This document shows, in pieces, positions 12,832-53,914 of a DNA stretch of 64,000 nucleotides (the stretch's first letter is position 1; every line of letters begins with the position of its first letter). The notes beneath the pieces are model-generated. The model made no database searches, was not told the origin of the DNA, and saw only the letters and a list, made by a program, of their open reading frames with translations. The stretch is from Tolypothrix carrinoi HA7290-LM1. GTDB lineage: Bacteria > Cyanobacteriota > Cyanobacteriia > Cyanobacteriales > Nostocaceae. Made by a program: the position numbers and the translations under genes. The stretch lies in NCBI GenBank assembly GCA_019358935.1, contig JAHHIK010000009.1, positions 44,707 through 108,706 on the forward strand, in the 5' to 3' direction.

Positions 12832-13540
12832 GTTGGAATAGATACTTGGGTATATCGTTTGGCGTTTTGATTGTTTGATACTCTCTAGCGACTAATTCCT
12901 TTGCTGGGAAGGATTTTGTGGTTCGTAGGCTGATCAACAAGTCGCAGACATTGTGGGGGTGTGATTTTGATTTGTTTTGGCTGAAGTCTTGGTTGAAAGG
13001 GCTGTTCCAGAACAATTTCCAGGTTTTATTGATTGAGTCGGGATTACAAGCAGGTGGGATGTTCCTACCGAAGCAAATTTTATTTGAGTCGTCCCAAATA
13101 TTTGGTAACGGCGCTTTGTATAATTGACAATCCTGCTTGAAGGTTCTTCCTTTAACTGCCCATAAGTAGTAGCTGCTGTTGCATCCAGCGAATATAAATG
13201 CTGGCATGGGAATAGTTATTGTATTGTTTCCTTCTGGAGTTTGTATTGAGACTGAATATTTTTGGGGCGGGTAAAATTGAATAATACCTTCTCCATTTGG
13301 TGTTATTTCCCACCACAGCGTATTGGGAGATAACCATCCTGAATTTACAGTTTTGGCTGTAAACGCTTTTTCCACAGCTTCAGGCGATAGAAATTTATGC
13401 TGTGTTTTATTACCTTCTTTTTCTATCAGTACAAACTGTCCTTTGAGAATGATTAGATGCCCTAAAATTTCCTGCTGTGGAATGTTATTCAGTATGACTT
13501 GAGTGTTTAATCCTGTATTTATATGGCAGCTTGATTCCAT
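12824..13540 (-). CDS. prokaryotic E2 family D protein (PRTRC protein B-like)
   Basis: LYKAPLPNIW...KICFG with the conserved Cys, and FWNSPF; lies directly upstream of the JAB gene in the module. Confidence 0.85.
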   Translation of the reverse strand: MESSCHINTGLNTQVILNNIPQQEILGHLIILKGQFVLIEKEGNKTQHKFLSPEAVEKAFTAKTVNSGWLSPNTLWWEITPNGEGIIQFYPPQKYSVSIQTPEGNNTITIPMPAFIFAGCNSSYYLWAVKGRTFKQDCQLYKAPLPNIWDDSNKICFGRNIPPACNPDSINKTWKLFWNSPFNQDFSQNKSKSHPHNVCDLLISLRTTKSFPAKELVAREYQTIKTPNDIPKYLFQHE

Positions 13541-14241
13541 ATTTTGACTACCTTCTTTCGATTGGCTATTGATACTTCTATCCAGTCTGATAACTCTTCA
13601 AATTGGTTTAATATGATGCTGGCTTCTTGCCATTTATCGGCGATCAGTAATACATTTTCTTCACTCCACTCCCACCAATATCCAGTTTCATAGGTTGTGT
13701 CTAACCAAATATTGCCTGTTGAATAGTCGAGAACACTCAGGCTAGTTACTAAATATTTGATTGGTGATTTTAACTTGTTACAGATTTTTACAAGTTTTTG
13801 AAAGTCTATATTTTCCACATCTGCTATATAATCAGGTTTAAACCCAAATTCTTCTTCCCAATATTCAAGGCTATACCCACTACCCATAACCGAGAGTAAG
13901 AATTTTTCGCTTGCCTCTAAATCTTCAAGGTTTTCATTCCACCATTCAAGTCTTTGTGGTAATATAGCTATACTTTCATACTCTCCGTATGTTTCTATTT
14001 CATCAATAAATTCAACTGGAAACAAGTTTGAATTTACTAGGTGAATAAATTCAATTTCTCTATCTGAATATATGCAATCAGGATGTGTTTTTCTGTTTAT
14101 AGGTGTTTTTGACTCATACCATTCTTCTGCAAATAGTTTTTGATATAAACTGAGTAAACTTGCTTTTTGAGAGAAGTTTTCCAGATAGGTGATTGCTTCT
14201 GTACAGGTGATGGGTATTTTAAATAGTTCTAGTGATATCAT
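13519..14241 (-). CDS. acidic hypothetical protein in the PRTRC module (protein F position)
   Basis: 240 aa, Trp/Glu-rich, overlaps the E2 gene; the assignment is by synteny only. Confidence 0.6.
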   Translation of the reverse strand: MISLELFKIPITCTEAITYLENFSQKASLLSLYQKLFAEEWYESKTPINRKTHPDCIYSDREIEFIHLVNSNLFPVEFIDEIETYGEYESIAILPQRLEWWNENLEDLEASEKFLLSVMGSGYSLEYWEEEFGFKPDYIADVENIDFQKLVKICNKLKSPIKYLVTSLSVLDYSTGNIWLDTTYETGYWWEWSEENVLLIADKWQEASIILNQFEELSDWIEVSIANRKKVVKIWNQAAI

Positions 14242-14285
14242 GATGAACGATAACTGCCGCTAGTGTGGATAGCGGCGTTGCTTAA

Positions 14286-14708
14286 CTACAATACGGGATA
14301 ATTGCTGGATGCAGGGGGTTGTTGTCCGAGGGACTTAAAAACCTTATCTGTATATGTTTCCCAGTTTTCCCCCATTTTGATTGTCTGATTTATTTGTGAG
14401 CGCATACTAATTAAAACTTCTAAAGTTAGTTGATTTTTTATTTCTAGAAGCTTCAATTCCCAAGCTAATACAAACGCTGGGTTAATTTGTTCAGATGCTA
14501 ATTTGAGTTCTGTGATGCAATTACCCTTGGTTCCAGCGCGTTTAACAAGTCTTATTTCGGTTGTTTCTCCTGTAGTTGTACGAGTAATTTCGGCATTGGC
14601 ATATTCTGGAAAATAAGTGCTGATTGCCAGTCTTAGCTTGTTGTCATCTATTGCTGTATTTGGTGGGATAGGAACTTGCTGCCCTTCGATAATAGCGATA
14701 TAATTCAT
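14286..14708 (-). CDS. ubiquitin-like protein (PRTRC protein C-like) with a C-terminal extension
   Basis: TYFPEYANAEI...LVKRAGTKG at residues 31-62 is the protein C signature; 78 further residues follow. Confidence 0.75.
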   Translation of the reverse strand: MNYIAIIEGQQVPIPPNTAIDDNKLRLAISTYFPEYANAEITRTTTGETTEIRLVKRAGTKGNCITELKLASEQINPAFVLAWELKLLEIKNQLTLEVLISMRSQINQTIKMGENWETYTDKVFKSLGQQPPASSNYPVL

Positions 14709-28736: not shown

Positions 28737-30506
28737 TTATTTAAAAAAATCGGCATAACTGTCTACAGGTAATGGTGAATTCCCAGCCTGTACGGGCGCT
28801 TGGGGAATGGGGAAACGCTTATCTACTTCTTTTACTCTGAGATCTAAATCTTCTTGAGTAGGTCGTTTTTGGGTGCTTTTCCGTGCTAACTGCTTGATAA
28901 GCTTGTCCCAATTGTTTCCGTTTTCTTCCTCCAAGCCAATCAAATATTTTGATACTTTAATAGTCTTTAATAGGGGTACAGAACCTTCCTTTTTATTATC
29001 ATAACCAGGGTTAATAAATACACATTTACCAGGTGGCAATTTGAGGAATTGGGCAGGTTCAAAAAGCTTGCGAGTTTTTTCCTGGTCGGAGATAGATGTT
29101 GAAGCTTTGCCCCCTCCAGTTGACCGGGATTTTTGTTTGTAGCTGATTTCCTCTTCACCTAAATAAGCACTAAAAAGCCTTGCAGATTCCTCTTCCCCAG
29201 GATTAAATACAAACTTGGTACCGCACGCACCAAGGATTGCTTTTGAGATTTCCTTGCCGTAAATTTTTTCCAACTGACCCATGTTTTGCCATCCGAGGAT
29301 TCCACAGAATCCTTCAGAACGCGACTCGTTAAGCCATTTAAACAAGTCTGGTAAAAAAATTGACGGTAGTTCGTCAACGCTAACCACAAGTGGACCAGAA
29401 TATTTCCTCTTTTTGGCAATACTGCGAGCGACGGTCATGTGTAAAATAGAAGTCATGAGTGGACCTACTGCGTCGCGGCGTTCGCGGTCGAGTCCAAAGA
29501 TAATCATCTGTTTTTTACCTACCTCTAGTGGTAAGGTGGTCTCACCGATAAAACAGCCCAAAGTGTTCTTAGCCATGAATCTCGTAAACATGAGCGATGC
29601 GGTACCGGCGATACCTGCGATGGTTTTCTCCGATCCGCTAGAGCTAAATAACTGACCAAAAGCTATTCTTATCCAAGGGTTGAGGCTCGCAGCCATCAAA
29701 CGTTCGACCATCTTTTCACTCGATAGAACTGCTGCTGCGGTCATGATATCGGCGAACTCGCCAAACTCCTTGGTGAGCATGAGGATTGCCTGGGTGAGTT
29801 GATCCCCCGCAGGTCCAAAAAATGCGTCCTCATTGGCGCCTCCCAACATCCGGAAGTTTTTATTTATCACAGTTGCAAGCTGACGTGCGGTTTCAGCATC
29901 GCTACTGTCGCGCAAGAAATCAATGGGGTTGCATACCTCCGATTCGGGGAATCCTGGCGCAAAGACGTGTACTTCATACCCCTTTGATTTAGCATAAGAA
30001 GCGATTTTGGCTTGTGAGGGGTATTTAAAATCGTATAGTACAATACCAAATCCTTGGTCAATTGCTGAATATAGCATGGGGTTGATTGCCGAAAAAGATT
30101 TACCGCTACCGGGTGCCCCAATGACGGCTGTACCTCTTTGAACATCAGGCACGTACATGGGTGTTCCCCCACTCCCCTTTGGTAGTTTTTGACCTTTATA
30201 TTTATGTACTCCAATATACAAACTAGCCGAATCGCATTTGGGGGAAGTGACTTGCTTGATAGCCTTTTTCTTGGCGCGGTTTGTTTCTTGACCCCCACCC
30301 CAATAGCTAGTGGCAAGTTTGCCTTTTTTGCCTCCAGAAAACATCTGTAAGAGAAATAGTCCTAATATCCCCCCGGCGAGTGCTAGTCCTTGGGGAGACA
30401 TCAGTTGGTTGGTATATTTGCTGAAGTCATAGCCAGACGAAGGTAAGGATTCTGTAGCAGTTTGAACTTTAGTGCTTGGGGTTTGAGCTAGGTATAAATT
30501 ATTCAT
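28737..30506 (-). CDS. type IV coupling protein (VirD4/TraD-like)
   Basis: N-terminal TM helix, GAPGSGKS, YDFK, VDELPS, QNMGQLEKIYG. Confidence 0.9.
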   Translation of the reverse strand: MNNLYLAQTPSTKVQTATESLPSSGYDFSKYTNQLMSPQGLALAGGILGLFLLQMFSGGKKGKLATSYWGGGQETNRAKKKAIKQVTSPKCDSASLYIGVHKYKGQKLPKGSGGTPMYVPDVQRGTAVIGAPGSGKSFSAINPMLYSAIDQGFGIVLYDFKYPSQAKIASYAKSKGYEVHVFAPGFPESEVCNPIDFLRDSSDAETARQLATVINKNFRMLGGANEDAFFGPAGDQLTQAILMLTKEFGEFADIMTAAAVLSSEKMVERLMAASLNPWIRIAFGQLFSSSGSEKTIAGIAGTASLMFTRFMAKNTLGCFIGETTLPLEVGKKQMIIFGLDRERRDAVGPLMTSILHMTVARSIAKKRKYSGPLVVSVDELPSIFLPDLFKWLNESRSEGFCGILGWQNMGQLEKIYGKEISKAILGACGTKFVFNPGEEESARLFSAYLGEEEISYKQKSRSTGGGKASTSISDQEKTRKLFEPAQFLKLPPGKCVFINPGYDNKKEGSVPLLKTIKVSKYLIGLEEENGNNWDKLIKQLARKSTQKRPTQEDLDLRVKEVDKRFPIPQAPVQAGNSPLPVDSYADFFK

Positions 30507-30583
30507 ATTTACTAAAAATTGGTATGAAGAAATATACTTTTGGATTGCATATTTCTCCTTGTGGTGTTAAAGGTCGGTGAGTG

Positions 30584-32164
30584 TCAAAGAGTTGGTTTTT
30601 TAGGCACTGTGAGGGGTGTGCCTAAAATAATTGAGTCCATCTCGCTATAGTTTAAGAATGGAACAGGACCGATAAAGTAGGGCGTGCAGGTGCGACCAAC
30701 GAAGGGGATCGTTTTGCAGAAACGGAAGAACATCGCAGTAGTTATACTTCCGTCAGCTTCGTTGACATCCCAGATAACTTGTTTGAATGATTTACCGAAG
30801 GGATGTCTTCCGGTTGGTTCTTTCCCGCCGTTAACACCACCGAGAATACCGAATCCACCCTTGACTTTTTGGAACTTGCCTGACATCCATGCCGCACCAG
30901 TTAGGTTATCGTTTCCAGCTACTTCGATGTGGGCGCATTTTTTGTTGTAGCAGGGGACGTTAAATCCTTCTTGCTCGCTACCCGATATTGATTTCCACCT
31001 GCCGTTTTCTACCTCTTTAAGTACCACATCCACCTTACCGATAAAGCTGGTATCGGGTACGGGTACTCCAGGTAACTGGTCAAATGGTACTTTTCCCAAT
31101 CCCGGAACCTTGCCGATAATAGTATTTTCCCAGTTGTTAAACTTTTTGAGGGCGGCTTTATCGATACCGGGAATGCTGGTGAGTTTGTATTTATCAAGTT
31201 TGAGGTATTTGCCAAGTTCGGCGGTTTCAAGTTTGGGGTAACTTTCGAGTGCTTCTCCTACAGTCAAGCTGCTTGTTGCATCCCCTGTCACTTTACTAAC
31301 TAAATCATCAATTGCTGGAATATCGGCAACTTCTAATTTGGATAATCCTGGGATAGCTGAAGCTAAATCGCCGAGTGACTGCCACTTAAGTGTCTCAAAG
31401 TCTGATAGTTTGAGATTTTTGAGGCTGGTATCCGTTATTTTTGAGATTTGACTGAGGTTAAGATTTTCGATTTTGAATTCTGTTGCCTCAAAATCTCCCA
31501 ACTGCATTACCTCAGCAAGTGACTGTCCCGCGTTCCAAACACGCTTTCCTTTGAGTTTTAAGTCTTTAATGTTAGGAAATTCGACTTCCCCTGCACTTGA
31601 AAACTTCATGCTATCAAAGTTAATCTTGCTCCAGTCAGGGACAGGCATCCCATTGATATACTTGACCGCAAGGAGTTGTTTTTTCGGTGTTTTAGCTTGT
31701 TTGCTCGAATGATTCAAATTTGAATCATTCGGGGAGAGGTTTACCGAAGTGTTCCCGAAGTACCCTGCTCTAAGCCGCTTTGCCTCTAGTGCTGGAGGGA
31801 GTATAGAACCAGCAACTTCTCTCAAATTTGAAACATTTGTTGGTGTAGCTGCGACAGCTTTATTCTCAAATACGAGACTGCCGATATTGTAGCTACCCCC
31901 GAATCTAATTAACCCGTGGAGGGCGAGTCCTGCCACCATACCAGCAGCCATGAGGTAGCGCCATACATTCATCTTTGTAGTGCGCCATTGATACCCCTTA
32001 CTTGGTTCATTTTTAGGAGGGTTGTAATTCGTGGTTGTAACTGGAACAATGGCGACTATCTCCGAGTTAACTTGGATGGCGCTAGTCTGCGGGTGGATTG
32101 CTTCTGTTGTAATATTTATTACTTTAAATGTTGGATTATCTGTTAAAAAATCTTTGGTTTCCAT
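30584..32164 (-). CDS. conserved T4SS-associated exported protein
   Basis: TM segment, repeated (S/D/K)(I/V)PGL units and a Cys-containing C-domain (GKEPTGRHPFG, CTPYFIGPVP). Confidence 0.7.
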   Translation of the reverse strand: METKDFLTDNPTFKVINITTEAIHPQTSAIQVNSEIVAIVPVTTTNYNPPKNEPSKGYQWRTTKMNVWRYLMAAGMVAGLALHGLIRFGGSYNIGSLVFENKAVAATPTNVSNLREVAGSILPPALEAKRLRAGYFGNTSVNLSPNDSNLNHSSKQAKTPKKQLLAVKYINGMPVPDWSKINFDSMKFSSAGEVEFPNIKDLKLKGKRVWNAGQSLAEVMQLGDFEATEFKIENLNLSQISKITDTSLKNLKLSDFETLKWQSLGDLASAIPGLSKLEVADIPAIDDLVSKVTGDATSSLTVGEALESYPKLETAELGKYLKLDKYKLTSIPGIDKAALKKFNNWENTIIGKVPGLGKVPFDQLPGVPVPDTSFIGKVDVVLKEVENGRWKSISGSEQEGFNVPCYNKKCAHIEVAGNDNLTGAAWMSGKFQKVKGGFGILGGVNGGKEPTGRHPFGKSFKQVIWDVNEADGSITTAMFFRFCKTIPFVGRTCTPYFIGPVPFLNYSEMDSIILGTPLTVPKKPTL

Positions 32165-32244
32165 AATCTTTACTACTTTTCAACAACTAGGTTTTCTGGT
32201 GTAGGTTGAGTATTATTTGTTTCTACTGGTTTGGGAGGGGCATC

Positions 32245-32982
32245 TCAAAATAAGCGTTTTCCACCCATAAGCATGAGCTTTTCAACTAATTTCATCGATA
32301 CCCCGGTGTTGGTTGCAGCGATGGTGAGTTCTTCACCAGTGCGTCGCAACTCGACTAGTTTGGTTAATCTTTCCCACAGTGGGGTATTGCTGTTTATCCA
32401 CTGTTTGTCAAGTGCAACCTGCATTCCTTTGGCGATATATTTGCTATCAGATACGGCAGTGTAATCAGATGAAGGTTTTTCTGGTTCCCGGTTATTGCTT
32501 GAGTCACCTATAATTTCTAGTTGGCTGTATTCGGGTTTTCCACTGCCTGGTATGATTTGGAAATGATAAGATTTTTTATTACCTCCAGATTCAGTAATTA
32601 CTGTCAGGTGCGAACCATAATTAGCTTGTGGCAATCCAGGTATTTTGACTGTTTCGATACGGCGGAGATGAATAAGTCCTGCTCCAGTTCCTTCGGACGA
32701 ACATTTTCCCAATCCTTCCAAACAGCCATCTACGTCAATTACAAATTTGGAGGGGTCATCCAACCAGATTTTTTTAATAACTTCCCCGGTGCGGTAAAAC
32801 GAAATTGATACTCCATGTCCGTTCCAAACCTTGACGGTTTGTAGTTGGGCGGTTTCTCCCGATACCATGTATGCTTCTATTTGACGGACAATACCTGCTG
32901 TCGCACTTTGTATAGGTAGTACAGGCAGCGCGATCGCCCAAGATAAAAGTAAGCTGAAACTGAATAAATATTTAGCTACCAT
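32245..32982 (-). CDS. T4SS outer-membrane core protein (VirB9-like)
   Basis: Signal peptide, IKKIWLDDPS; adjacent to the VirB10-like gene. Confidence 0.6.
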   Translation of the reverse strand: MVAKYLFSFSLLLSWAIALPVLPIQSATAGIVRQIEAYMVSGETAQLQTVKVWNGHGVSISFYRTGEVIKKIWLDDPSKFVIDVDGCLEGLGKCSSEGTGAGLIHLRRIETVKIPGLPQANYGSHLTVITESGGNKKSYHFQIIPGSGKPEYSQLEIIGDSSNNREPEKPSSDYTAVSDSKYIAKGMQVALDKQWINSNTPLWERLTKLVELRRTGEELTIAATNTGVSMKLVEKLMLMGGKRLF

Positions 32983-32991
32983 GACGGTTTG

Positions 32992-34731
32992 TTACAGTTT
33001 GATGGAGCGATTGACGAGAATAGAGATTTTGGTGTAAGCAGGTATATACCAGATGTTTGGACGGCTGGTAATTTCACTAGTAGCTTGTTGGGTGCGGCTT
33101 GTAATGGTTTCCGATAGCTTGCCAAAAGCGCCTTCTAAAAATGCACCTGTGATATTGCGATTATTTCCTGTGGTGCGCGTGCGGCTGCCACCGAAGGGGA
33201 GGTCTTCTGTGGTTTGGTCTTGTCTGTTGATTATTTCTCCTACTTTTGCAAGTCCCGCGATAGTGCCAAGAGTGGTATCAAAAAGAGCGATTTCTCCTCC
33301 CTTATCTTTGTAGGGACGGGCGATGAGGGGGTTATTACCTTTACCTAGAATTGAGATTGCGCCGGGGGAGATGGGATATTCAGTACCATCTTTAAGTATT
33401 GCAATTACTTCAGCGGTGATATTAAATCCACTATCAACAGAGACAAGTGCGATCGCAACTTGCGTACCAGCACTTAGGGCTATTCCACCTGTGTTGCTTT
33501 TGATTGGTTCATCCAAACGGGCTACAAATCTGAGGTTGCTGTTTGTGCTGCCTTGAGTAAGTATTAAAGGAGTAACTAAGGTAGCGCTTGTGGAAGAACC
33601 TACTACTAAATATTGGGTTTGTCTTTCCTCTAAAATTTGGGCTTCTTCAGTTAGGTAATTAATAGAACTAAGTTGGGCTTGCTTGCTTTTAGAAGTAGTA
33701 AACTCGACAGCATTAGTTGGTTCCCATCGGGGGCGCAGTTCTTCAACTTCCCCTGTGTTGTTGGGTGTACTGTTAGGTGTAATATCGACTGTATTTTCAC
33801 CGCGACGGTTGCGGCGGCGGGGTGTTTCATCTTTATAAACTTCCTCTTCTGTTCTACTGCTAGCAATAGTAGTGCTGTCAGTATTGTTACCATATTCAAC
33901 TCGACCGACATTACCCAGACTGCGGAGGCGTTCGAGTTCGGCTAGGGGGTCTTTCTGTGTTTCTGTACGACTCTCGCTGGATGATGGTACTGCTTTTGTG
34001 GTTTTGCTACTTACCGGAAGAGTTATTTTTGGTAAAGTTGTAGTGGGGCGTAAGGGTTCGACGGGACGGGACGCAAGGACTGCACTGCGTGTTGGTCTGT
34101 TGTATTCAGTTTCAGGATTTGGTTCCCGGTATACACGGTAGCTGCGCGGAGGGGGAGGTGTTTCTTGAGATGTGACCCTAGCTTGAGTTGTCGTAGACAA
34201 AGCGGGAGTGCTGGCGTTAGGAATTTGTTTTTTACTGTTTTTACCGTCTGGAGTTTCTTCCCTTTCAGTATTATTTCCTTTGGTTTCTTTCTCTTTACCG
34301 TTGAGTGTTTCAAGTTCTTGCTGTTGCTTTTGGAGAGCTAGTTTTGCATAAGCATCCCCGTCCTTTTCTTCAAATGGTGCGGATGTAGGAGTATTACTGG
34401 GAGTAGCAATTGGAGTTTGAGCAGTGTTGCTGCCACCGTTGATCATGCTGTTGAGGACGACAAACATAAGTACAAAACCTACTCCAAATGCACCCCCAAT
34501 AATGCCGAGTCTCGACCAGGGAGAGGTTACAAAATCGTGTTTGGTTTGAACGGCTGCGGGATTTTCCTCATCATCTTCTGTTGATTCTTTTTCTAATTCA
34601 TTTTCACATTCAGTTGGTTTAACTCTATCTTCATCGAGTGGTAAAAGTGCATCAACAGAGTTATCTTGATTTAAATTATCGTTATTACTAATAATCGTTT
34701 CTTGATTTTCGTCGGGAAAATTTAGTGCCAT
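32992..34731 (-). CDS. TrbI/VirB10-like protein
   Basis: TM helix, Pro/Thr-rich linker, C-terminal beta domain ending WYIPAYTKISILVN. Confidence 0.8.
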   Translation of the reverse strand: MALNFPDENQETIISNNDNLNQDNSVDALLPLDEDRVKPTECENELEKESTEDDEENPAAVQTKHDFVTSPWSRLGIIGGAFGVGFVLMFVVLNSMINGGSNTAQTPIATPSNTPTSAPFEEKDGDAYAKLALQKQQQELETLNGKEKETKGNNTEREETPDGKNSKKQIPNASTPALSTTTQARVTSQETPPPPRSYRVYREPNPETEYNRPTRSAVLASRPVEPLRPTTTLPKITLPVSSKTTKAVPSSSESRTETQKDPLAELERLRSLGNVGRVEYGNNTDSTTIASSRTEEEVYKDETPRRRNRRGENTVDITPNSTPNNTGEVEELRPRWEPTNAVEFTTSKSKQAQLSSINYLTEEAQILEERQTQYLVVGSSTSATLVTPLILTQGSTNSNLRFVARLDEPIKSNTGGIALSAGTQVAIALVSVDSGFNITAEVIAILKDGTEYPISPGAISILGKGNNPLIARPYKDKGGEIALFDTTLGTIAGLAKVGEIINRQDQTTEDLPFGGSRTRTTGNNRNITGAFLEGAFGKLSETITSRTQQATSEITSRPNIWYIPAYTKISILVNRSIKL

Positions 34732-34769
34732 ATATTACAACTTAATTGCTACAAGCTTTAATGAAATTA

Positions 34770-35552
34770 TTATTTTCTCTTTTTCCCAAGTTCGTAATCT
34801 ACGATTTGGGTTATTTCTAAACCAGACATTTTAGCTTGATAAATTTTTTTGGCTATTTCACTAGTTTCGGGTGGGTTTTGGGGGCTATCTATTGCTGCTA
34901 CGGTAATTGTTTTGTTGAAGGTAATGCCTTTACTTAGATTTCTTTCACCGTTGAATGTGACTAAATTACCGATAACATCAACTTCCCATTTCCCATGTTC
35001 GATTTTACGTGGTTTGGAGACAAAGTTGGTTACAAGAGTGACTGTACCTTTTCCGGAAAGTATACCTTCAGGGATTGTTTCTGCTAGTTTTTTGAGGAAG
35101 CTGGCGCGGAAATCTTGATTTTCAGATAGTGTGAAAGCCCCTGACCAAACATCAGTGGGGATTTTTCTTCTAGCCCCATTTACCATTTCAATTTCTATTC
35201 CTTTATCTACTTTTTGAACGAGATTTCCATTATCGTCTTCATTGATAACTCCATCCCAGTTGAATAATTTAATTAAGCTATTAGTAACAAAATCATTGAT
35301 AACTTTGTCAGTTCTTTCTCCAGGAGCAACACTTTTGATAGTTTTGGTACTTCCATTTTCTAACTGGACAAATGTCATAGCTTTCATATATCTGTTATTA
35401 GCAGAAGTTGCCCCAAAATTGATAAATTGTAATAGAAGAGAGAGGATGCCAGAGAAGGCGCCTAATGTAGTTGCGATTGCGACTGGTGCTGATGTAGATT
35501 GTCCGTAACTGAGTAGGCGAAGCGGTTGTGATTTTGGTTTAAATTTGAGCAT
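34770..35552 (-). CDS. T4SS inner-membrane protein (VirB8-like)
   Basis: Single N-terminal TM, FVQLENG; assigned by position. Confidence 0.55.
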   Translation of the reverse strand: MLKFKPKSQPLRLLSYGQSTSAPVAIATTLGAFSGILSLLLQFINFGATSANNRYMKAMTFVQLENGSTKTIKSVAPGERTDKVINDFVTNSLIKLFNWDGVINEDDNGNLVQKVDKGIEIEMVNGARRKIPTDVWSGAFTLSENQDFRASFLKKLAETIPEGILSGKGTVTLVTNFVSKPRKIEHGKWEVDVIGNLVTFNGERNLSKGITFNKTITVAAIDSPQNPPETSEIAKKIYQAKMSGLEITQIVDYELGKKRK

Positions 35553-35558
35553 TGTTGA

Positions 35559-36749
35559 TTATTTTTTTCTTACTTTTGCAGCGACAAATTTTGTGGCATT
35601 TACGCCTACTGTTGCTGCTGTGCTTGCTCCGGCTGTAGCGATTGGAGCTGCAACTTGAGATCCAAACGATGCGGCTTTACCCAATCCTGACCAAACAGCA
35701 AGTCCGCCGCCAGCCGCCAGAGATGATGCCAGGATAGGAGAAACCAACCCAACGAAAAGAAGAAATATCATTGGCTGGTTTTGCTCGGAATTTGCAATCA
35801 GTTGTCCGCACAAACCAATAATGATGTTGAAGCAAAGTTTTGCGATGCCGACTGAAAAATAGCCAGTCAACCAGGCAAAAATTGGTTTAGCGCCAAACGG
35901 GAGTAATGAACCACCCACTGCAAGCGGACCGAGAAGGGCAGTTAACAGCATCGTAAATTCAATGCCCCACTGGTAGGCATTATTTAGGGCAAGTAATATG
36001 ACGGCGACAAAACCAGTTATCATTGAGCCGATGGTACTGGTGATTGTGTTACCGACTTTTTCTATCACTTGACCGGGAGAAAGATTTGAGAGTGCGTCTT
36101 TAGCGTCGGATAGGGACTTAAGGGGGTTAAATTCCCAACTTCCTTCGCTAGGTGCTTCTCCCTTAAATAAGCCTGGTGCAGACTTTTTGATTTCAAGTTC
36201 GGCTTGTTGGAGACAAGCGATCGCATCACCAGTACCACCCGGAATCGACCGACATCTTTCCATCGCGCCTCCGACTTGCTGTTGAAGGGCGATATTTCCA
36301 ACTGCGCGGTTGAATGCTACCTCAAGGTTTGCTCCTGCGGCTGTAAAATTGAGTACATCGTTGTTGACGTTATTGATATACCCTCTGATTGTAAGGGTTC
36401 CGCTTCTAAGTAGGGTGCCGTTGTTTGCCAACAATCCAATGACTATGATGGGCCATATCCAACTTGATAACGCCTTCATGTCTTCTTGGTTGATGAAGTT
36501 TTTACCAAGTTCCACCATATATAGAGTGAGGGTGGCGAGGGCGAAAAACTGACCGACCTTACACATTGCACCATATAAATTTCCGTTGAGGGTTTCTTGC
36601 CAGAGTTCGTTAAACCCCTCAGCTACTAGTTGCGCTCCCCCGGCGGCGTTTTCGAGGATATCTTGTCCAAAATATGGGTCAGTGGCAATTATCAGATGGT
36701 CTAACATGGGCACTTGTGTTATACCGTTTGTAGGGAGCCATCTCTGCAA
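35559..36749 (-). CDS. polytopic T4SS membrane protein (VirB6-like)
   Basis: Multiple TM helices, LLGPLAVGGSLLP. Confidence 0.7.
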   Translation of the reverse strand: MQRWLPTNGITQVPMLDHLIIATDPYFGQDILENAAGGAQLVAEGFNELWQETLNGNLYGAMCKVGQFFALATLTLYMVELGKNFINQEDMKALSSWIWPIIVIGLLANNGTLLRSGTLTIRGYINNVNNDVLNFTAAGANLEVAFNRAVGNIALQQQVGGAMERCRSIPGGTGDAIACLQQAELEIKKSAPGLFKGEAPSEGSWEFNPLKSLSDAKDALSNLSPGQVIEKVGNTITSTIGSMITGFVAVILLALNNAYQWGIEFTMLLTALLGPLAVGGSLLPFGAKPIFAWLTGYFSVGIAKLCFNIIIGLCGQLIANSEQNQPMIFLLFVGLVSPILASSLAAGGGLAVWSGLGKAASFGSQVAAPIATAGASTAATVGVNATKFVAAKVRKK

Positions 36750-36777
36750 TCAGAGATGACTAATTGATTAAAGAAAA

Positions 36778-37524
36778 TTACTTACCAGCAGTAGTTTTGA
36801 GAGAGCTAAACCCGCTAATTTCTATGTATTGGGAGGTAATACCGTCCATCATCAGGTTTTGACGGCGGCGATCGCTTGCACCAAGTTCTGCAATTTGAGA
36901 TAGCATCAAGTTAGTTTGTTGTGAGTCGTGTCGCTGTTGCAGTCCGTCAGTGCGCGATTGTCCCAACATTGAGACAACCTGGGCGTTTTGGGCAGCAATC
37001 ACCTTGAGGATATTTTGTGAAGCATCCATTTCTTGCGCTTCGTTAGCCAAATCTTGCGCCGAGGCTACTGTTTGTTGGGTTGCTTCAATTTCCTTTTTGG
37101 TACGTTCTTGCCCTTTTTCGCCCAGGACACTTTCAACTGTGGCGCGGGTGGTTTCCCGTTCCAATTCGTTGGCTGCACCTACAGCACCTTCAACTGTGTT
37201 ACTTTCGTTCCAGTTACCCTTGCCCAAAAGTTGCTCTTTTAACTTATCGGCTGAGTTTACTGGGTCTGGCATATCCATACTGCCAGTCTTAATAGCAGTT
37301 TTGGCTTCGCCTTTCATCCCACCCCAACTTTGATTAATGGCAGCGGTGAGTTCGCCCTTAGTTTCTTCAAAATAGCTATTGAGTTCGCCCAATAATTCAT
37401 TAAAGAAACTATTAACATCTAGTGAGAGGGCTAGTACAGGTTCTGTTCCAAGAAAAATACATACCCCAATTACCGAGCCGATTATTAGTCGTTTTTTGGG
37501 TTGAAACTTGAATGGTCGTTTCAT
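36778..37524 (-). CDS. exported helical T4SS protein (VirB5-like)
   Basis: Signal peptide (VLA) and coiled-coil content; assigned by position. Confidence 0.5.
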   Translation of the reverse strand: MKRPFKFQPKKRLIIGSVIGVCIFLGTEPVLALSLDVNSFFNELLGELNSYFEETKGELTAAINQSWGGMKGEAKTAIKTGSMDMPDPVNSADKLKEQLLGKGNWNESNTVEGAVGAANELERETTRATVESVLGEKGQERTKKEIEATQQTVASAQDLANEAQEMDASQNILKVIAAQNAQVVSMLGQSRTDGLQQRHDSQQTNLMLSQIAELGASDRRRQNLMMDGITSQYIEISGFSSLKTTAGK

Positions 37525-37672
37525 AATTTACTCGTGTATTTGTCCATGTGGCAGTGGTAACTTAGTCTTAAATTTGGTTACTTTTAGCCACTTTTTTAGG
37601 TATTTATTCTATTAGTTTTTCTTCTATCGCTTGTACATTTAGTACGGGATTTTTACCAACTAAATTTAATGC

Positions 37673-40534
37673 TTATTGGTTGTTTTCTGTTGGTTGTTCT
37701 ATAGGTTGTACGTTGATTACGAATTTTTTATTAGTTGAATTTAATAGCTCTTTGGTTTCTTCTGTTGGTTCTTCTTGGCGAATCATTCCCACATATGCTT
37801 CAGAGAATTTAACCATTCCCAACATGGGATTTTGTTTATATTTGGTGAGATATAGGGTACGTAATTCTTGTTCGTTGGGGTTATTAGCAACGGCAGCGAG
37901 CAGGCAATAAGCTGGATAATATCTACAAAAAGTTAGTTTGCCATTATCGTCAAGTAACCACTGCGAGTAAATACTTTCGCGTTTGGGGAAGAAAGCTTCT
38001 GTGCTGTTACGAGAAATAATTTCTGATGGATATTTAAATCTGGCGATAAATGGGTCTACTGCTGATGTTTGAATCCGTCCTATAAGACGGGTTGTGAGGT
38101 TAGCGAATATCTTAGGAGCAGATTTACTTTGGAAGATACTTTCCGGTTCTTGGGCTGATAGAATAACTCTGATACCAGCTTTTGCACCGTTAGCGCAGAG
38201 TCTGCCGATTAGTTCGGCTATACTTTCAAAGTTGAAGAGAATCGGCGCTTCATCTAGGAAAAAAATCGATGCTTTACTCGACAATGCTCGACGTAGGGCG
38301 GCTGCATATGCTGAGAGTGCAAGTATTGCTGCGTCTGTTTCGCTCCCTAGCGATCGCAAGGCAAATACTAATAGCCGAGCATCTGTTCTAAAACTAGATG
38401 GTTTAGCAACTGACTGACCTACTCTTGAATTTAGCCAGAATTTTATCCGCAGTCTAATTTGGTCAAGTGCATCTAAAATATCCTTACTGTTATTGGCAAT
38501 TAAATCTAATTTGATATACCCAGGCGAACAGAAATTATAGAAATCTTGGAGAGTTGGAATATCATTCCACTCAGGTGTTCCTACACCTGATTCAAAAGCA
38601 AGTTTATATCGTAATTTGATATCATCGTCGTTAAAGAAAGTTTCAATCCCAAGGGTCAGAATACTTTCAATATTTGATATCATCGTGGGACTAACGTTAG
38701 CTCGGTTAGTACCAAGTACCATTGTCATAAGTGTTGATTTCAAGAACTCCTTGAAATCAGTCATTCGCTCTTTGATAAGCTCAGGTTCGTATCCCCTTAA
38801 GTCGGGAAGTTCAAATAAGTTATTTGCCTCCTTAGTGATGTCAAAGTAAGCACCTTCTTCACCCATCAACTGCGTATAATCTGTGAAAGTAGAACTACCG
38901 TCTGGTTTGGGATAGTCCAGGGCGATGACGGGGATACCTTGAGCTAAAGCTGGTGTTAATAACCCGGCTACTAGTACAGATTTACCAGCCCTAGTTGTAC
39001 CGAAGACTGCAAGATTTTTGTGCTGGGTGTACAAGTCGAGATGTACGGGGGTTCCTCCTTCTTCGGCTATAAGCTCAAACCCAGATTTATCGCCTGTGGA
39101 GGTACGTACTAGGGGCATAATTCCCGGTACCTCAGAAGAGAAATAGGGGAGACGGCGATTAAACGGTTTTGTTAGTAAATTTTCCCAAATAATAGGTACT
39201 GTTTGCGACCAGGTTTTCCATGCGTATTCTATTTCTCTATCAACTACTGTCGGTCGTAGGAAACAACTGGAGATATATCTGCAAGCTTCATCAAGTTTTT
39301 GACGGCTGCTACGGTAAATACAGAAGACAACCGCCGTGTGGATAGGGATAGAACCATTAAGGATAGTTTCTTGTGCCCGCACAGCCTCCTCGATGTTCAT
39401 GTTTGCCTTGACATCAATAGAGCCTTTATCGGCAGACATGGCGCTGGAAGTTATTGACTGTTTGGTTATGCGCTGAAGGGCAGTTTTAGCTAGTCCTTGG
39501 TTAGCCTTGGATAACTGGCAGATAATTTCGGTATCAGAGATTTTCTCTTTAGAAATTACCTCCCAGAGGTATCGTAGTTGGTCGTACTCATCAACCCAGC
39601 CTTGAGGTTTTTCGCTAAATTGTAGGACACCGATATACTTGTTTTGGAGTTTGACCCAGCTGCGGTCGAGGAAGGGAACCGATTGTTCGTTTTCCAGGAC
39701 TAAGTGTTTGATATGGAAATCGCTTGTTTGTTCTTCTTTGAGTCCTGTTTCATCAAGGATAAGGCGATTGGGGATGGGGGGTACTTCACTACGGTTAAAT
39801 TGATTCCAGATAACTTCCCAGATATCGCTTGCTGTAAGTACTTTGGCGCTTAACCCCATTGTGTTGGAGATAATTTGCTCCCACATTTGAAATCCAGATG
39901 TGAAGCTATCTTTTAAAATAGTTTCAATGCGCTGGTGCCTGACAGCATGAATTTCTCCAGTAAATCCTTGCCAGTATGTTTGCAGTTGCTTGATAGTTTT
40001 TTCAATGGGGTCGTTGCTTTTGCTGCTTTCAGCTGCAAGTACGGTATAAGTACACCAGAAGCGGAGGAATTTATTTTTACGTACCCCTGCGAGTGTGAGT
40101 TCGCGCGCTCGCAGGCGTTCTGACCTTATTAGTAGAGTTAGCTGTTCGAGATCGCACTGTTTTTCGACTTTCTTCAGCTCTTGTTGCCGAAAGGTATCAT
40201 CGGTAAACGAACCAATGTGGATTGTTAGGGTTTCGCGTTCGGGTAGTTCCTTGAGTCCACCCTCGATATTTTCAAATATAGGTAGGATTTGTTCTTCAAG
40301 AAGGGATGGGTGAATCCCTTGGATATCAAAGCAAAACCTAATTTGAATATCTTCCTTTTTCTTGAGAATGACTGCGCCAACATTCTTACGACCGCCAAGT
40401 GAGATACTTGCAATTCCTGCTAAGTGGGTAATATCCTCAAATGGCGTGAGACCTTTTACTACCCCAAGTTGTTCGGTTTCGAGGGATTGTCTGCCAAGTT
40501 TATCTTTTGGCTTCTTGGGTTTGGTCGAAGTCAT
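37673..40534 (-). CDS. VirB4-like T4SS ATPase
   Basis: 953 aa, Walker A GTTRAGKS, Walker B FFLDEAP. Confidence 0.85.
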   Translation of the reverse strand: MTSTKPKKPKDKLGRQSLETEQLGVVKGLTPFEDITHLAGIASISLGGRKNVGAVILKKKEDIQIRFCFDIQGIHPSLLEEQILPIFENIEGGLKELPERETLTIHIGSFTDDTFRQQELKKVEKQCDLEQLTLLIRSERLRARELTLAGVRKNKFLRFWCTYTVLAAESSKSNDPIEKTIKQLQTYWQGFTGEIHAVRHQRIETILKDSFTSGFQMWEQIISNTMGLSAKVLTASDIWEVIWNQFNRSEVPPIPNRLILDETGLKEEQTSDFHIKHLVLENEQSVPFLDRSWVKLQNKYIGVLQFSEKPQGWVDEYDQLRYLWEVISKEKISDTEIICQLSKANQGLAKTALQRITKQSITSSAMSADKGSIDVKANMNIEEAVRAQETILNGSIPIHTAVVFCIYRSSRQKLDEACRYISSCFLRPTVVDREIEYAWKTWSQTVPIIWENLLTKPFNRRLPYFSSEVPGIMPLVRTSTGDKSGFELIAEEGGTPVHLDLYTQHKNLAVFGTTRAGKSVLVAGLLTPALAQGIPVIALDYPKPDGSSTFTDYTQLMGEEGAYFDITKEANNLFELPDLRGYEPELIKERMTDFKEFLKSTLMTMVLGTNRANVSPTMISNIESILTLGIETFFNDDDIKLRYKLAFESGVGTPEWNDIPTLQDFYNFCSPGYIKLDLIANNSKDILDALDQIRLRIKFWLNSRVGQSVAKPSSFRTDARLLVFALRSLGSETDAAILALSAYAAALRRALSSKASIFFLDEAPILFNFESIAELIGRLCANGAKAGIRVILSAQEPESIFQSKSAPKIFANLTTRLIGRIQTSAVDPFIARFKYPSEIISRNSTEAFFPKRESIYSQWLLDDNGKLTFCRYYPAYCLLAAVANNPNEQELRTLYLTKYKQNPMLGMVKFSEAYVGMIRQEEPTEETKELLNSTNKKFVINVQPIEQPTENNQ

Positions 40535-40575
40535 GACGATAACTCTCTGCGTTAATATTTCTTGACAATTGAAGA

Positions 40576-40908
40576 TTATTTGCGCTTTTTGCGTTTGGGT
40601 TTTCTTGTTGGTGAGGATGGTGGATTCACCAGTGACACGAAGGGTTTATATCCGCGAGTGATGCGGGGAGTACCGACAAACTTACCTAAGAAGGCTTTAT
40701 TTGATGTGACCGTCCACCAAGTTGCCCATCCCCAGGTGATTGATATTCCCGTTGCCAGCCATCCTGCTTGAAGAAATCCCTGAACTACGAAATACATAAT
40801 GAGTGCGATCGCACTCCAAGGAACAATTTGGTCGGCAGGAAATGGACCGAGCCGAGGTTGGTCGCCTAAGACTTGGTTGACGGTACGGAATTCTCTGTCT
40901 CTAGGCAT
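40576..40908 (-). CDS. VirB3-like membrane protein
   Basis: Small two-TM protein directly upstream of VirB4. Confidence 0.6.
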   Translation of the reverse strand: MPRDREFRTVNQVLGDQPRLGPFPADQIVPWSAIALIMYFVVQGFLQAGWLATGISITWGWATWWTVTSNKAFLGKFVGTPRITRGYKPFVSLVNPPSSPTRKPKRKKRK

Positions 40909-40956
40909 TGCTTTTTGGGTTGGGAGTGGTAAAAAACCACTCCTTTCATGATTTGA

Positions 40957-41577
40957 TTAGCCGACTGCGCCACCGCCACCAACGACGAGTCCTGAAAGAA
41001 TGTCACCAACAACTACGGTGATGGCGATAATAATTGGGGTACGGGCAATGGTCTGCCAATCTTCGTCATTTCTTGCTGCTTGCACCACCCGAATAAGACC
41101 TATAGCAAGATAGATAAGGAACAGACCGCGCAGTACTGCGAAGATGAATCCAGTTACTTTTTGATCTATACCGGGGAAGTAATTGGCATCTTTGAAGAAT
41201 TTTTCAGCGTTGTTCATGAATTGGGCGCTGGCGGGTGCAACTGACATATCCAGTAGAAATACCGCACCCACTAAGCAAAACATGATTGTGTAAATGTTTA
41301 CGCCGTACTTGCGCTGCCATTTTTCAAAGTTGGAAAGCAGGCTGTTTGCTTCTTTGGGCATTAATGCGACACCGGCAGTAGCGAACGCTAATGATGCCAT
41401 GAGCATATTGTGGATTGAAATATCTACAAGCATCAATCCGGTACCAACAACCATCAAACCGGCGATTGTGCCATTTTCTTTTGAATTGCGGCGGCGACGT
41501 ACTGGTGCGGGATATCCGTATTCTTGTTCGTATGATGTGTAGTCGTTATTGTAATCGGGGTCGTAGTTTGTTCTCAT
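40957..41577 (-). CDS. VirB2/pilin-like membrane protein
   Basis: APASAQF processing-like site followed by two hydrophobic helices; first gene of the T4SS run. Confidence 0.55.
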   Translation of the reverse strand: MRTNYDPDYNNDYTSYEQEYGYPAPVRRRRNSKENGTIAGLMVVGTGLMLVDISIHNMLMASLAFATAGVALMPKEANSLLSNFEKWQRKYGVNIYTIMFCLVGAVFLLDMSVAPASAQFMNNAEKFFKDANYFPGIDQKVTGFIFAVLRGLFLIYLAIGLIRVVQAARNDEDWQTIARTPIIIAITVVVGDILSGLVVGGGGAVG

Positions 41578-50230: not shown

Positions 50231-50560
50231 CTAATGTTACTAACAATGGGTGTTACAAAGAACGTGCTTCGCAATTTTGTTTTAAAAATCATAGAAACAT
50301 CCCACCTACCTCGCTTTCACTCTGATTTTCTCGCTCACGAGTTAGGGTTGCGATATCAACTCCCAGCCTTTTCGCACTTATTTTCCCCCGTGTAGGGCTG
50401 AAGTTCTAATTGTGGAGGATGATAGTTAAAAGCTTGCCTTTTGTATCCTCCAAAGTTATGCGAACGCTGCTGACTAAGGGTTGCGATGGGCGTACAGCGC
50501 TCCGCGCATGAAAACCGCGTAGCGTCTCGGAGAGAAGCCCCGCCGGAGGCGATCGCCCCC

Positions 50561-51196
50561 TCAATTTTTGCTAAGGAGTGTTGTAACTGCCTCTAGCTTT
50601 TGTTCCACATTGCCAAGGCGTGTTTCTGTACTATTGTCTGCACACACTTCTATACTGCCTGTCAGATACTTCAATTGTTCTTCGAGCTGGGCAAGACGAT
50701 TTTCTACACTGTCTTCCATACCTGGAACTGAACCCAGGACGTGGTGCAGCCCTTGAATTACTGTCGGTTCGCGGACGGGCGTGAAAATTGTCGCAGACGG
50801 GCGTGAAAATATTCGCGGACAAGCTTGAAAATTATGTTTGTGAAACCCTAATTTTTTCGTGGTAAGCAGCGATCGCTGCTTACAGAATTATTACTCCAAA
50901 GCCTTGTACTGTAATAAGTTGCACTTTTTTATCCTCCGAAGGCGGAAAATTTCAAGCTTGTCCGCAAATAAGGTCGGGAATTTTTCATCTACTCCACGAC
51001 AAATTTTCACGCCCGTCTGCGACAAGGTACGCTAAAACCCTGATTATTCGGTTGAGATTTTTTCAAGCTTGTCTGCGAACCGACAATTACTAAATCTGTA
51101 GCGGTGGTGTCTAGCTCAACTGCTTTGGCTCGAAGTGCGTCAGAATACGGTTTGGTCCGTTTTGAAATTGATTGATTCCCGTTCCATTTTTGCCAT
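50561..51196 (-). pseudogene. ribbon-helix-helix-like plasmid gene interrupted by a mini-transposon
   Basis: Removing 50762-51085 plus one ATTAC restores ...DALRAKAVELDTTATDLV/IQGLHHVLG...; there is also a frameshift after MAKMERESINFK. Confidence 0.75.
50762..51085. mobile_element. 324-bp non-autonomous Tn7-like element
   Basis: TGTCGGTTCGC...GCGAACCGACA termini, 5-bp target duplication ATTAC (50757-50761 and 51086-51090), and three repeated sites at each end. Confidence 0.88.
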
Positions 51197-51329
51197 GTCT
51201 ACACCCACGCATATACGGTCGTGTAGATAGTTTACAACTAGCATAAGATTCAGTTTGAGGAATAATTTTTTGTCAGTTCGCGGACAAAAAGTGCTTACCA
51301 GTAAACTAAATTGTTCTCACCAATCATGG

Positions 51330-51724: not shown

Positions 51725-52033
51725 TTATTCATCTTCTAAAGAATCTTCAAAAATACTTGGGATATCTCTTGCTCCATGCAGAACGCGAAGAACTTCAATT
51801 CCTTGGTTGACGGGGCGGTAAAAAATCAGATAATTCCCTACTGGAAAACTTCGTAGATTCGGCACTAATTCGTCACGTTTTCTTCCCATACCTGGGGTTG
51901 AAGCCAGCATTTTGAGTTTGCTTTCTATCTTTTGTAGAAACCAATCTGCTCTTTCAAAACTTTTATTAGCAATGAAATCCCAAATATCTAATAAATCAGC
52001 TTCAGCAAGTGGTTTCTTAAGAATAATCGGCAT
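51725..52033 (-). CDS. parE: ParE/RelE family toxin
   Basis: AEADLLDIWDFIA...PGMGRKRDEL...YLIFYR...VLRVLHGARD. Confidence 0.92.
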   Translation of the reverse strand: MPIILKKPLAEADLLDIWDFIANKSFERADWFLQKIESKLKMLASTPGMGRKRDELVPNLRSFPVGNYLIFYRPVNQGIEVLRVLHGARDIPSIFEDSLEDE

Positions 52034-52290
52034 TACGCAGACTGTTTCTCCTGCCGTTGTTGTTTTGCTTTGGCGATGATTTCATTCATGTTTAAGGGTG
52101 TAGATTCTCCACTATCAATCCCTTGTTGAATCTCTCGTCGCAGCTCTGCAAGGCGTATTTCTTTGAGGGCATCCTGTTCTTTGAGCAGCCGCAGTCCTTC
52201 CCGGATGACTTCACTCGCGGAAGTGTACAGACCACTTTCAACTTTAGACTGCACCCACTTTTCCAGTTCGGTGGTTAGTGAAATGTTCAT
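52033..52290 (-). CDS. parD: ParD family antitoxin
   Basis: MNISLT...VESGLYTSASEVIREGLRLL; overlaps the toxin start. Confidence 0.92.
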   Translation of the reverse strand: MNISLTTELEKWVQSKVESGLYTSASEVIREGLRLLKEQDALKEIRLAELRREIQQGIDSGESTPLNMNEIIAKAKQQRQEKQSA

Positions 52291-52945: not shown

Positions 52946-53914
52946 ATGGATGTTCGGGAGAAGCAGGAGCAACTACTTGAATCTTCTTTATTGTTGGCGG
53001 CGCCTGTTCCGTTAACCGAACATCCAGCGAACGTTTATCTCAATTCAAGGTTAAGTCCTGGTTCCCGTCGGGCGATGCGGGGGGCATTGAATACAATAGC
53101 CCAAATTTTAACTCTTGGTGTTGGCTCGGAGATGACTTTGGATTGGTCGAAATTGAGGTACAAACATACTGCGGCGTTGCGTACTGTGTTGGAAGATAAA
53201 TATGCGCCAGCTACCACCAATAAGTTTTTGAGTGCGCTGCGATGCGTGCTGCGAGAGGCGCTACGGTTGGAATTAATGGATGGTGCTGATTACGCGCGGG
53301 CAGTTGATGTGATTAACGTTAAAGTTTCTACCAAGTTGCGGGGACGGGCTTTGACTCTTGAGGAGATATCTGCTTTATTTAAAGTTTGTGAGGAAGATTT
53401 TACGACCGCTGGTTTTAGGGATGCAGCACTTTTAGCGATACTCCGCAGCGGGGGATTGCGACGGGCAGAGGTGGTAAATTTAAATTTGAAGGATTTTAAT
53501 CCCAAAACTGGAGCACTGGAAGTTATTGGGGGGAAAGGGGGTAAGGACGGTACTGTTTATTTAAACGATGACGCGATTGTTAAAGTTCAGGCTTGGTTAA
53601 ATATACGTGGGTCAGTTGGTCAACCTTTACTATGTCATGTTACTAAGTCAGGTCGTGTAGAAGTGCGGCGCCTAACTCCCCAGGCTATTTTATACATCCT
53701 CCAGCGTCGGGGACAACAAGCCGGAGTGACTAATTTTTCTTCGCACGACTTTCGTAGAACTTTTATATCAGAACTTTTCGATGCTGGAGTTGATATATCT
53801 ACAATTCAGCAGCTAGCTCGCCACAGTAATGCTAACCAAACCACTCGCTACGATAGGCGGGGCTCGGAAACCAAGCGGCGCGCTGTACAGAAATTGAGTA
53901 TTCCTAAAAAATAG
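52946..53914 (+). CDS. tyrosine recombinase (integrase/resolvase)
   Basis: GLRRAE, GKGGK, HDFRRT, LARH and TRYDRR catalytic set. Confidence 0.93.
   Translation: MDVREKQEQLLESSLLLAAPVPLTEHPANVYLNSRLSPGSRRAMRGALNTIAQILTLGVGSEMTLDWSKLRYKHTAALRTVLEDKYAPATTNKFLSALRCVLREALRLELMDGADYARAVDVINVKVSTKLRGRALTLEEISALFKVCEEDFTTAGFRDAALLAILRSGGLRRAEVVNLNLKDFNPKTGALEVIGGKGGKDGTVYLNDDAIVKVQAWLNIRGSVGQPLLCHVTKSGRVEVRRLTPQAILYILQRRGQQAGVTNFSSHDFRRTFISELFDAGVDISTIQQLARHSNANQTTRYDRRGSETKRRAVQKLSIPKK

Follow-up and report, generated by a model that had tools for sequence, protein, structure and literature searches.

The window analysed here, a 64,000-nucleotide stretch of a 108-kb contig from the cyanobacterium Tolypothrix carrinoi HA7290-LM1 (genome G000), contains a minus-strand pseudogene (50307..51196, ATG at 51196) for a plasmid protein of ~190 residues with an Arc/RHH-like N-terminus. 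The gene is interrupted near codon 37-39 by a 324-bp element of the Tn7 family that carries no genes; its frame is also shifted by +1 near codon 12 and broken at more points downstream. Members of the ~190-aa protein family are present in 133 of 200 other genomes of the bacterial family. The protein matches no Pfam family, and in the Atlas it scores 0.98 to a 'putative Arc-like' cluster that is possibly its own. A structure model (pLDDT 77.6) returned nothing in Foldseek at E ≤ 0.001, and the best rows of the fold search, PutA52 and Arc, had probabilities of 0.85-0.96 but E values of about 1-2. Together these results weakly suggest that the N-terminus may be Arc-like (RHH).

Several short repeats accompany the gene. 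Inverted heptads (TCTACAC...GTGTAGA, 51198..51227) lie right before the ATG and form a putative operator. Two further sets lie on the minus strand within the gene: the pair GTATGGA-N5-GTGTAGA (50703..50721), which is conserved at +145 in intact alleles and located 40 bp outside the right end of the element, and an array of three heptads with a 12-bp period (50625..50655), which corresponds to +211/+223 in intact alleles. Upstream of the gene, a solo 16-bp terminal motif, TGTCAGTTCGCGGACA (51271..51286), bounded by TGTC/GACA, is positioned 74 bp from the ATG and 43 bp from the operator, and is probably the collapsed remnant of an older insertion. A short GC-rich insert in the pseudogene (about 50490-50560), perhaps a dispersed repeat, ends at a HIP1 octamer.

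At higher coordinates on the window lie a ParE-ParD toxin-antitoxin pair (51725..52290, minus strand; PF05016, PF03693) and a tyrosine recombinase gene (52946..53914, plus strand; PF00589). On reading of its open reading frames, the contig looks like a conjugative plasmid. A PLSDB search gave 13 matching plasmids, all cyanobacterial and 8 of them typed conjugative. Genes resembling a cyanobacterial conjugation system, including a coupling protein and a VirB4-like ATPase, were recognized by eye at 28737-41577. A run of ThiF-like, JAB-like, E2-like and ubiquitin-like genes, named by eye from their translations, is found at 11429-14708 and again at L024 2308-5772, both on plasmid-like contigs.

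Anatomy of the 324-bp element

The element (50762..51085, plus strand) begins with TGT and ends with ACA (TGTCGGTTCG...CGAACCGACA), with 14 of the 16 terminal bases identical in inverted orientation, and is flanked by an exact duplication of ATTAC (50757..50761 and 51086..51090). Its right end (50762..50833, plus strand) consists of TGT followed by three contiguous TnsB-type sites, presumably bound by TnsB, whose TCGC cores at 50769, 50791 and 50813 give a period of 22 bp. The termini, the duplication and this periodic array had all been described in a first-pass annotation of the window and were found again here. That annotation also described three spaced inverted sites at the left end, which are present at about 50949-50968, 51003-51022 and 51060-51079, and overlooked a fourth, degenerate site at 50981-51002 that also occurs in relatives of the element. 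The left end (50945..51085, minus strand) is therefore composed of a terminal site, a spacer, two adjacent sites of which one is degenerate, and a fourth site. Six mutually similar 18-mers are found in the element, versus at most four in 269 dinucleotide shuffles. When the 7.96-Mb genome was scanned with a position-weight matrix built from these same six sites, they ranked at the top with 26.7-33.1 bits, and the next match reached 22.7 bits.

Between the ends lies a 22-bp palindrome (50862..50883) around the HIP1 octamer GCGATCGC (50869-50876), and comparison with relatives reveals that GCGA-TCGC or a near variant is kept in most of them, with inserts at this position in two. A direct repeat, AAACCCT-ATT-TTC-GT, occurs within both ends (50843-50860 and 51035-51052), is kept in relatives and represents a possible candidate site for a host factor.

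Comparison with intact alleles (L179, L180, L181) shows that the target 5-mer is present only once when the element is missing, so the earlier proposal that the reading frame rejoins on excision holds locally; no whole frame is regained because of the +1 frameshift near codon 12 and the later breaks. The first-pass annotation had tied its reading to the existence of an empty site in homologous genes. Such sites exist in these intact alleles and, in more distant alleles, in public contigs of other studies that join the flanks without the element.

Related mini-elements, full-length parents and the source of transposase

Searches of the source genome with the element, its ends and the site matrix gave a single copy, and neither a second copy nor a parental tnsB locus was recovered by the search for ends that the first-pass annotation had advised. 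Viral contigs contained no match to the element. Among 300 other genomes of the family, by comparison, 50 match the mini-element, 18 of them over at least 80% of its length at 68-85% identity. These minis align from end to end, and the ~320-bp layout with its inner segment is common to many genera. The element is short and non-coding, and has terminal repeats and a target duplication in common with an autonomous element, as a MITE does; across genomes it also behaves as one unit found at many independent sites. It is not a high-copy MITE, since the source genome has only one copy.

A set of 27 distinct minis of 240-400 bp sit in different flanks, although L007 and L214 share their right junction. 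Nine of them are bounded by 5-bp duplications, eight by 4-bp duplications, two by 3-bp duplications and eight by 0-1 bp. Since near-full-length relatives have duplications of their own, the mini would appear to move as a unit in trans. A clade with support of 99/98 holds nine minis, six with a 5-bp and none with a 4-bp duplication, and outside it are six 4-bp minis together with the 5-bp copy of the window. Exact 4-bp duplications are seen at L004, L008, L055, L061, L082, L091, L096, L160, L206 and L214. Where a duplication is missing, insertions lying close together at a hot spot may have recombined. At L057 (4979-6670), a mini whose right end is identical to that of the window at 131 of 142 positions contains ~1.4 kb of inserted DNA without similarity to tns genes.

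Scanning GTDB genomes for the end pattern gave 82 stretches, 15 of which, single matches in non-cyanobacterial records, were set aside as chance before any counting. In other cyanobacteria the same ends are found 5-6.4 kb apart around four genes, a TnsA-TnsB-TnsC-TniQ operon (L067, 5980 bp; L080, L055, L140, L141, L139). The parent proteins are a 226-aa TnsA (PF08722), a 748-aa TnsB (PF00665/PF09299), a 361-aa TnsC (PF05621) and a 264-aa TniQ (PF06527), such that TnsA and TnsB are encoded by separate reading frames and not as a fused TnsAB. The residues D269, D354 and E390 of TnsB are invariant in seven aligned transposases, and we take them to be the catalytic triad, as in Tn7 TnsB. The contiguous-site end adjoins tnsA in the parents and is thus the right end by the convention used in the portion of PMC11406308 that covers Tn7 ends. 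These parents bear out the first-pass annotation in its view of the element as a non-autonomous member of the Tn7 family, and the ends do not belong to a non-Tn7 transposase, which it had given as grounds for rejection.

The single TniQ of the parents is 264 or about 410 aa long, and the shorter form has little besides the TniQ domain (residues 9-145). Between the ends are only tnsA, tnsB, tnsC, tniQ and one or two small reading frames (L067, L080, NZ_CP026684.1); a 147-aa frame among the parents has no Pfam match, no NCBIfam match at cut-off and no Atlas match of at least 0.9. No recombinase or resolvase gene lies between the parent ends, and neither cas genes nor an array are present in the reading-frame lists of L067 and L080 or in annotated NZ_CP026684.1. 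Of the tniQ and cas genes that the first-pass annotation advised noting at the parental locus, tniQ is present and cas is not, and its link to CRISPR-associated transposons finds no counterpart in these 6-kb parents. The plasmid targeting of the TnsE type that it implied is likewise not matched, as no TnsE-like or large TnsD gene accompanies the single TniQ.

Among eight paired full-length parents, L055 has a 4-bp duplication and the others have none or, once, 15 bp; the latter flanks the parent at L040 (4145-9578). The best match between mini and parent is that of the window's left end to L138 (122 of 142 positions), a parent that has lost its right end and carries a stop in tniQ. At its right end the element resembles the parents over ~71-84 bp, and at its left end over 141-147 bp. 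The inner ~110 bp of the mini, centred on the HIP1 octamer, are matched in no parent; because parent likeness covers the ends only, this DNA is extra, and the 324 bp do not define natural minimal ends as had been supposed. The central octamer hints that the mini may have arisen by deletion between HIP1 sites.

TnsB relatives at E ≤ 1e-100 occur in 32 of 389 genomes of the family, G000 not among them, and in only 2 of the 18 genomes with near-full-length minis. Searches of G000 with PF09299, PF06527 and the parental TnsB, TniQ and TnsA gave only the TnsAB of another element on contig C24, and no cognate transposase. With an assembly that is 99.65% complete in 184 contigs, the helper is described as not found rather than absent; its being missing from the assembly points to mobilisation of the mini in trans.

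The C24 element (C24:34960-41007, equal to L023 9961-16008) is an intact 6.0-kb TnsAB-TnsC-TniQ transposon with the duplication ACATA. It carries its own copy of the RHH-like gene as cargo, and its insertion point precedes another copy by 76 bp and is 45 bp away from the operator; a counterpart of the solo motif lies at the same place on C24, with the element inserted 2 bp away. The RHH gene is stable cargo of elements of this type, with four copies in genome G012 and one in G144, and may be a captured target selector; none of the four visible ends of the G012 TnsAB copies lies at a class motif as defined below.

The least probable explanation is that a full transposon was reduced to the mini by a single deletion in place, or that this resident C24 element moved the mini. 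It would fit the single copy in the genome and the finding that the only Tn7-family transposase there is located at the same kind of site. However, the C24 ends (TGTCACTG...GCATAAGTTGAGCAA) and sites are unlike those of the mini, its transposase is only ~25% identical to the parents' TnsB, and a one-off event does not give the same ~320-bp layout and inner segment, with separate duplications, in many genera.

Placement of ends relative to target motifs

Many mini copies are located at the RHH gene family that is interrupted in the window, with right ends typically 63-76 bp upstream of the ATG and facing away from the gene (outliers at 97 and 466 bp). The RHH genes form two clades with different upstream repeats, and flanks of at least 100 bp were scored for four classes of motif, each with a set distance. 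Class A comprises heptads (GTRYRGA) with a 12-bp period upstream of the RHH gene. Class B comprises GATATC pairs, which also precede uninterrupted clade-2 RHH genes in G000. Class C, ATAAGGGT-n-TTAT with a palindrome in front, lies 860-1640 bp upstream of one recombinase type at five distinct loci. Class D, TTATCGAAAA-n-TTTTCGATAA, abuts the start of a recombinase gene in L147. The palindromes of classes C and D may be recombination sites. A TATC/GATA core is common to classes B, C and D, and repeats of the A and B type that precede a tyrosine recombinase gene with no adjoining RHH gene are also targeted (L021, L065, L095, L006).

The resulting placement is strongly one-sided: with classes and distance windows defined post hoc on the flanks that were scored, 31 of 48 right ends lie at the set distance from a motif, and none of 60 left ends does (1 of 61 before L048 was reclassed from left to right, after scoring, on the basis of an inner sequence block). 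Solo ends match in 7 of 16 cases, a count that excludes L093, which was reclassed as a right end, and includes the solo motif of the window at 51271-51286, even though that motif is found inverted in runs X3 and X5 and is for this reason uninformative on orientation. For random positions the rate is 0.01% genome-wide and 0.10-0.11% when they are drawn from plasmid-like contigs or from the loci. Ten class A right ends lie at 40-44 bp, nine of class B at 41-48 bp and two of class D at 36 and 47 bp; the ten of class C are 64-70 bp from the core, and about 42-46 bp by eye from the palindrome in front. Of the 17 right ends in no class, seven abut another Tn7-family end, two are inside one (by eye) and two are at class C motifs at 50-52 bp. 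The first-pass annotation, while correct in calling the element Tn7-like, had missed that it belongs to a family widespread on cyanobacterial plasmids, with targets at fixed distance and in fixed orientation.

When the frozen patterns were applied to a hold-out of 30 metagenome loci, the set distance was seen for 2 of 8 new right ends, for none of 12 left ends and for none of 3 solo ends; L201 and L195 come close by eye and were not counted. When 29 RHH loci were selected by protein, the 110 bp upstream were free of ends at 25 of them and contained a Tn7-family terminus at four: L171 at 44 bp (a junction already counted), L189 at 46 bp, L175 at 15 bp and L179 with a left-end remnant. Only one of these termini, that of another family at L189, is both new and within 40-48 bp. 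No P value is claimed, as the genomes are kin and the events are not fully independent; such independence as they have rests on differences in duplication and offset, as at L206 and L159, two insertions into one allele with 6 bp between them. None of the RHH sites proved to contain an intact parent.

For the window copy, the proposed determinant is the heptad pair at 50703-50721, which is the nearest to its right end and would be bound by protein. Strict heptad pairs number 22 in the 7.96-Mb genome, and all three on the 108-kb contig fall within the RHH gene that the element interrupts. Of 30 RHH loci, 23 have intragenic pairs, usually at +145 or +211/223, which could reflect a 4-residue repeat of the protein. 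Other intragenic insertions lie near +161 to +170 (L012, L064, L042), ~40-50 bp before the second array by eye.

The same spots are used by other elements. At L040 a single palindrome has a parent on one side and a mini on the other, both facing it, at 36 and 47 bp. Unrelated Tn7 lineages insert at comparable distances (the C24 TnsAB element at 45 bp, L189 at 46 bp), and at L235 two other Tn7 lineages flank one operator on both sides. Three transposase lineages that are 24-67% alike, with TniQs of 191-301 aa, converge on these shared sites. With the tree placements of L206 and L214 left aside, minis of the 5-bp clade are found at classes A, B and D, and 4-bp minis at classes B and C. Stacked Tn7-family elements, two or three kinds per spot and some just inside the end of another, were also seen (L140, L142, L147, L152, L157, L039). 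At L059 and L092, left-type ends lie 78 bp upstream of an 88-aa gene, which in L092 precedes a ParE-type toxin gene.

Target choice and its meaning

How would such an element find its target? The mini is probably a non-autonomous derivative of a Tn7-family transposon that depends on TnsABC-TniQ in trans and inserts beside DNA held by a plasmid protein. What can be read directly from the DNA comprises the ends with their duplication, the existence of parents and of a wider family, and the bias of placement in distance and orientation. A helper element in the same cell would have supplied TnsABC-TniQ, and the mini would have moved by cut-and-paste through TnsA. TniQ-TnsC would then assemble beside a site held by a plasmid-encoded protein, whether heptad or GATATC repeats bound by an Arc-like RHH protein or a palindrome bound by a tyrosine recombinase, and the right end would be joined about 40-48 bp from the occupied site; offsets on this scale are usual for TniQ-TnsC. 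The target in the window would be the heptad pair at 50703-50721, and the window copy would at present be stranded, its helper since lost or unassembled. More tentatively, we hypothesize that a Cas-free, TnsA-containing lineage with one small TniQ and TnsC integrates right end first at ~40-48 bp from wherever one of several unrelated plasmid proteins is bound (an RHH protein of either specificity, a tyrosine recombinase or perhaps TnsB on the array of another transposon), and that one sub-lineage does so with a 4-bp stagger.

An alternative hypothesis is that TniQ variants each read their own DNA motif directly, as TnsD does, so that several helpers would give rise to several classes and host proteins would play no part. 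We regard this as unlikely, although it keeps some probability, since among the parents classes C and D go with different TniQ lengths: those with 264-270-aa TniQs are at class C (L108, L111, L113, L110, L141, L121, L122) and those with 405-414-aa TniQs at class D (L139, L147). The TATC/GATA core common to classes B, C and D also speaks for it. Four observations favour occupancy instead: the motifs bear no relation to one another, the TniQs are small (the 264-aa form has little besides the TniQ domain), the diverged transposases described above share their target sites, and several classes are used within each duplication group. A complex predicted for the 264-aa TniQ and the class C recombinase scored 0.00, which counts neither for nor against.

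Untargeted insertion, followed by survival in tolerant plasmid regions and inheritance of a few ancestral insertions, is considerably less probable again. The relatedness of the genomes, the post hoc motifs, the weak hold-out and the G012 copies would all be compatible with it. However, survival gives neither the contrast between right and left ends nor a fixed spacing, several insertions break the gene, and junctions, duplications and offsets differ between copies (class C, 64-70 bp).

Placement beside DNA occupied by plasmid proteins can be compared with known systems, within the passages of the cited sources that describe them. As in prototype Tn7 (PMC11406308), the mini has contiguous 22-bp sites on the right, spaced sites on the left, a 5-bp duplication and, as proposed here, a target determinant outside the right end. 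Unlike prototype Tn7, which uses TnsD for glmS and TnsE for conjugating plasmids, the parents are without TnsD and TnsE and their targets are plasmid motifs. The same review states that Tn7 and all its relatives make 5-bp duplications, a rule from which the 4-bp duplications in a sister lineage depart. The closest functional likeness is to the 'res site hunters' Tn5053/Tn402 (PMC11406308), which have one TniQ, no second pathway and TGT/ACA ends, and which target plasmids beside protein-occupied recombination sites, as proposed for the parents. They differ in having no TnsA and in having their own resolvase and res site, whereas the parents have TnsA and no resolvase; moreover, their targets are the res sites of serine resolvases, whereas those of the parents are linked to tyrosine recombinases or RHH proteins and only presumed to be occupied. 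The mini family works like Tn5053 but is not a member.

In the architecture of TnsA, TnsB, TnsC and TniQ the parents resemble the type I-B1 CAST clade of cyanobacterial separate-TnsA elements (PMC9881144; Hsieh and Peters), but cas genes, an array and a TnsD of the glmS type are all missing from them. In its sections on these elements, PMC9881144 describes neither mini-elements nor RHH or recombinase sites. The TnsAB-fusion elements Tn5469 and Tn5541 (PMC9881144, PMC11406308) are, like the parents, poor in cargo and have a single small TniQ, but their TnsA and TnsB are fused and their ends are different. In the TnsAB table of PMC9881144, which lists TnsAB elements, the end sequence of the C24 element has three matches and the mini end TGTCGGTTCGC has none. 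Tn5469 is called untargeted in the 2024 review PMC11406308, which expects more lifestyles to be found, whereas the TnsAB elements seen here recur at the sites of the minis. Elements of the IS1202 family (PMC10132070) similarly insert in fixed orientation and at fixed distance by plasmid tyrosine-recombinase sites (Xer/pdif), but are single-gene insertion sequences placed 5 bp from the XerC site, without TnsC or TniQ. The CRISPR-array-targeting minimal Tn7-like elements of cyanobacteria (PMC11837452) share a fixed insertion position and access to plasmids; they target CRISPR repeats and are kin to tRNA-targeting elements, and no such target was seen for the minis. In the literature searched, which covered few subscription papers and included portions of PMC9881144, PMC11406308, PMC10293859, PMC11014353, PMC11300857, 10.1101/2025.07.27.667033 and 10.1101/2024.11.13.623437, no account was found of these minis as a family, of targeting to RHH operators or of duplications of 4 bp.

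The interest of these elements rests on the target rule and on the 4-bp lineage, and a mini without genes would by itself be of modest interest. As a test system the family is compact: the donor is a natural element of 324 bp, the helpers have four genes, a 190-aa protein in two specificity classes is the candidate selector, and the target motifs come with a predicted offset. Should targeting depend on occupancy, a DNA-binding protein could steer integration without RNA. Faure et al. (PMC10293859) proposed, in the part that concerns ancestral stages, one in which a DNA-bending protein acts in trans as target selector, and the family would, if the occupancy reading is true, be a living example of that stage. 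It would also account for how 'untargeted' elements with a single TniQ reach plasmids. The placement of its copies points to target choice without CRISPR and without an attachment gene on the chromosome.
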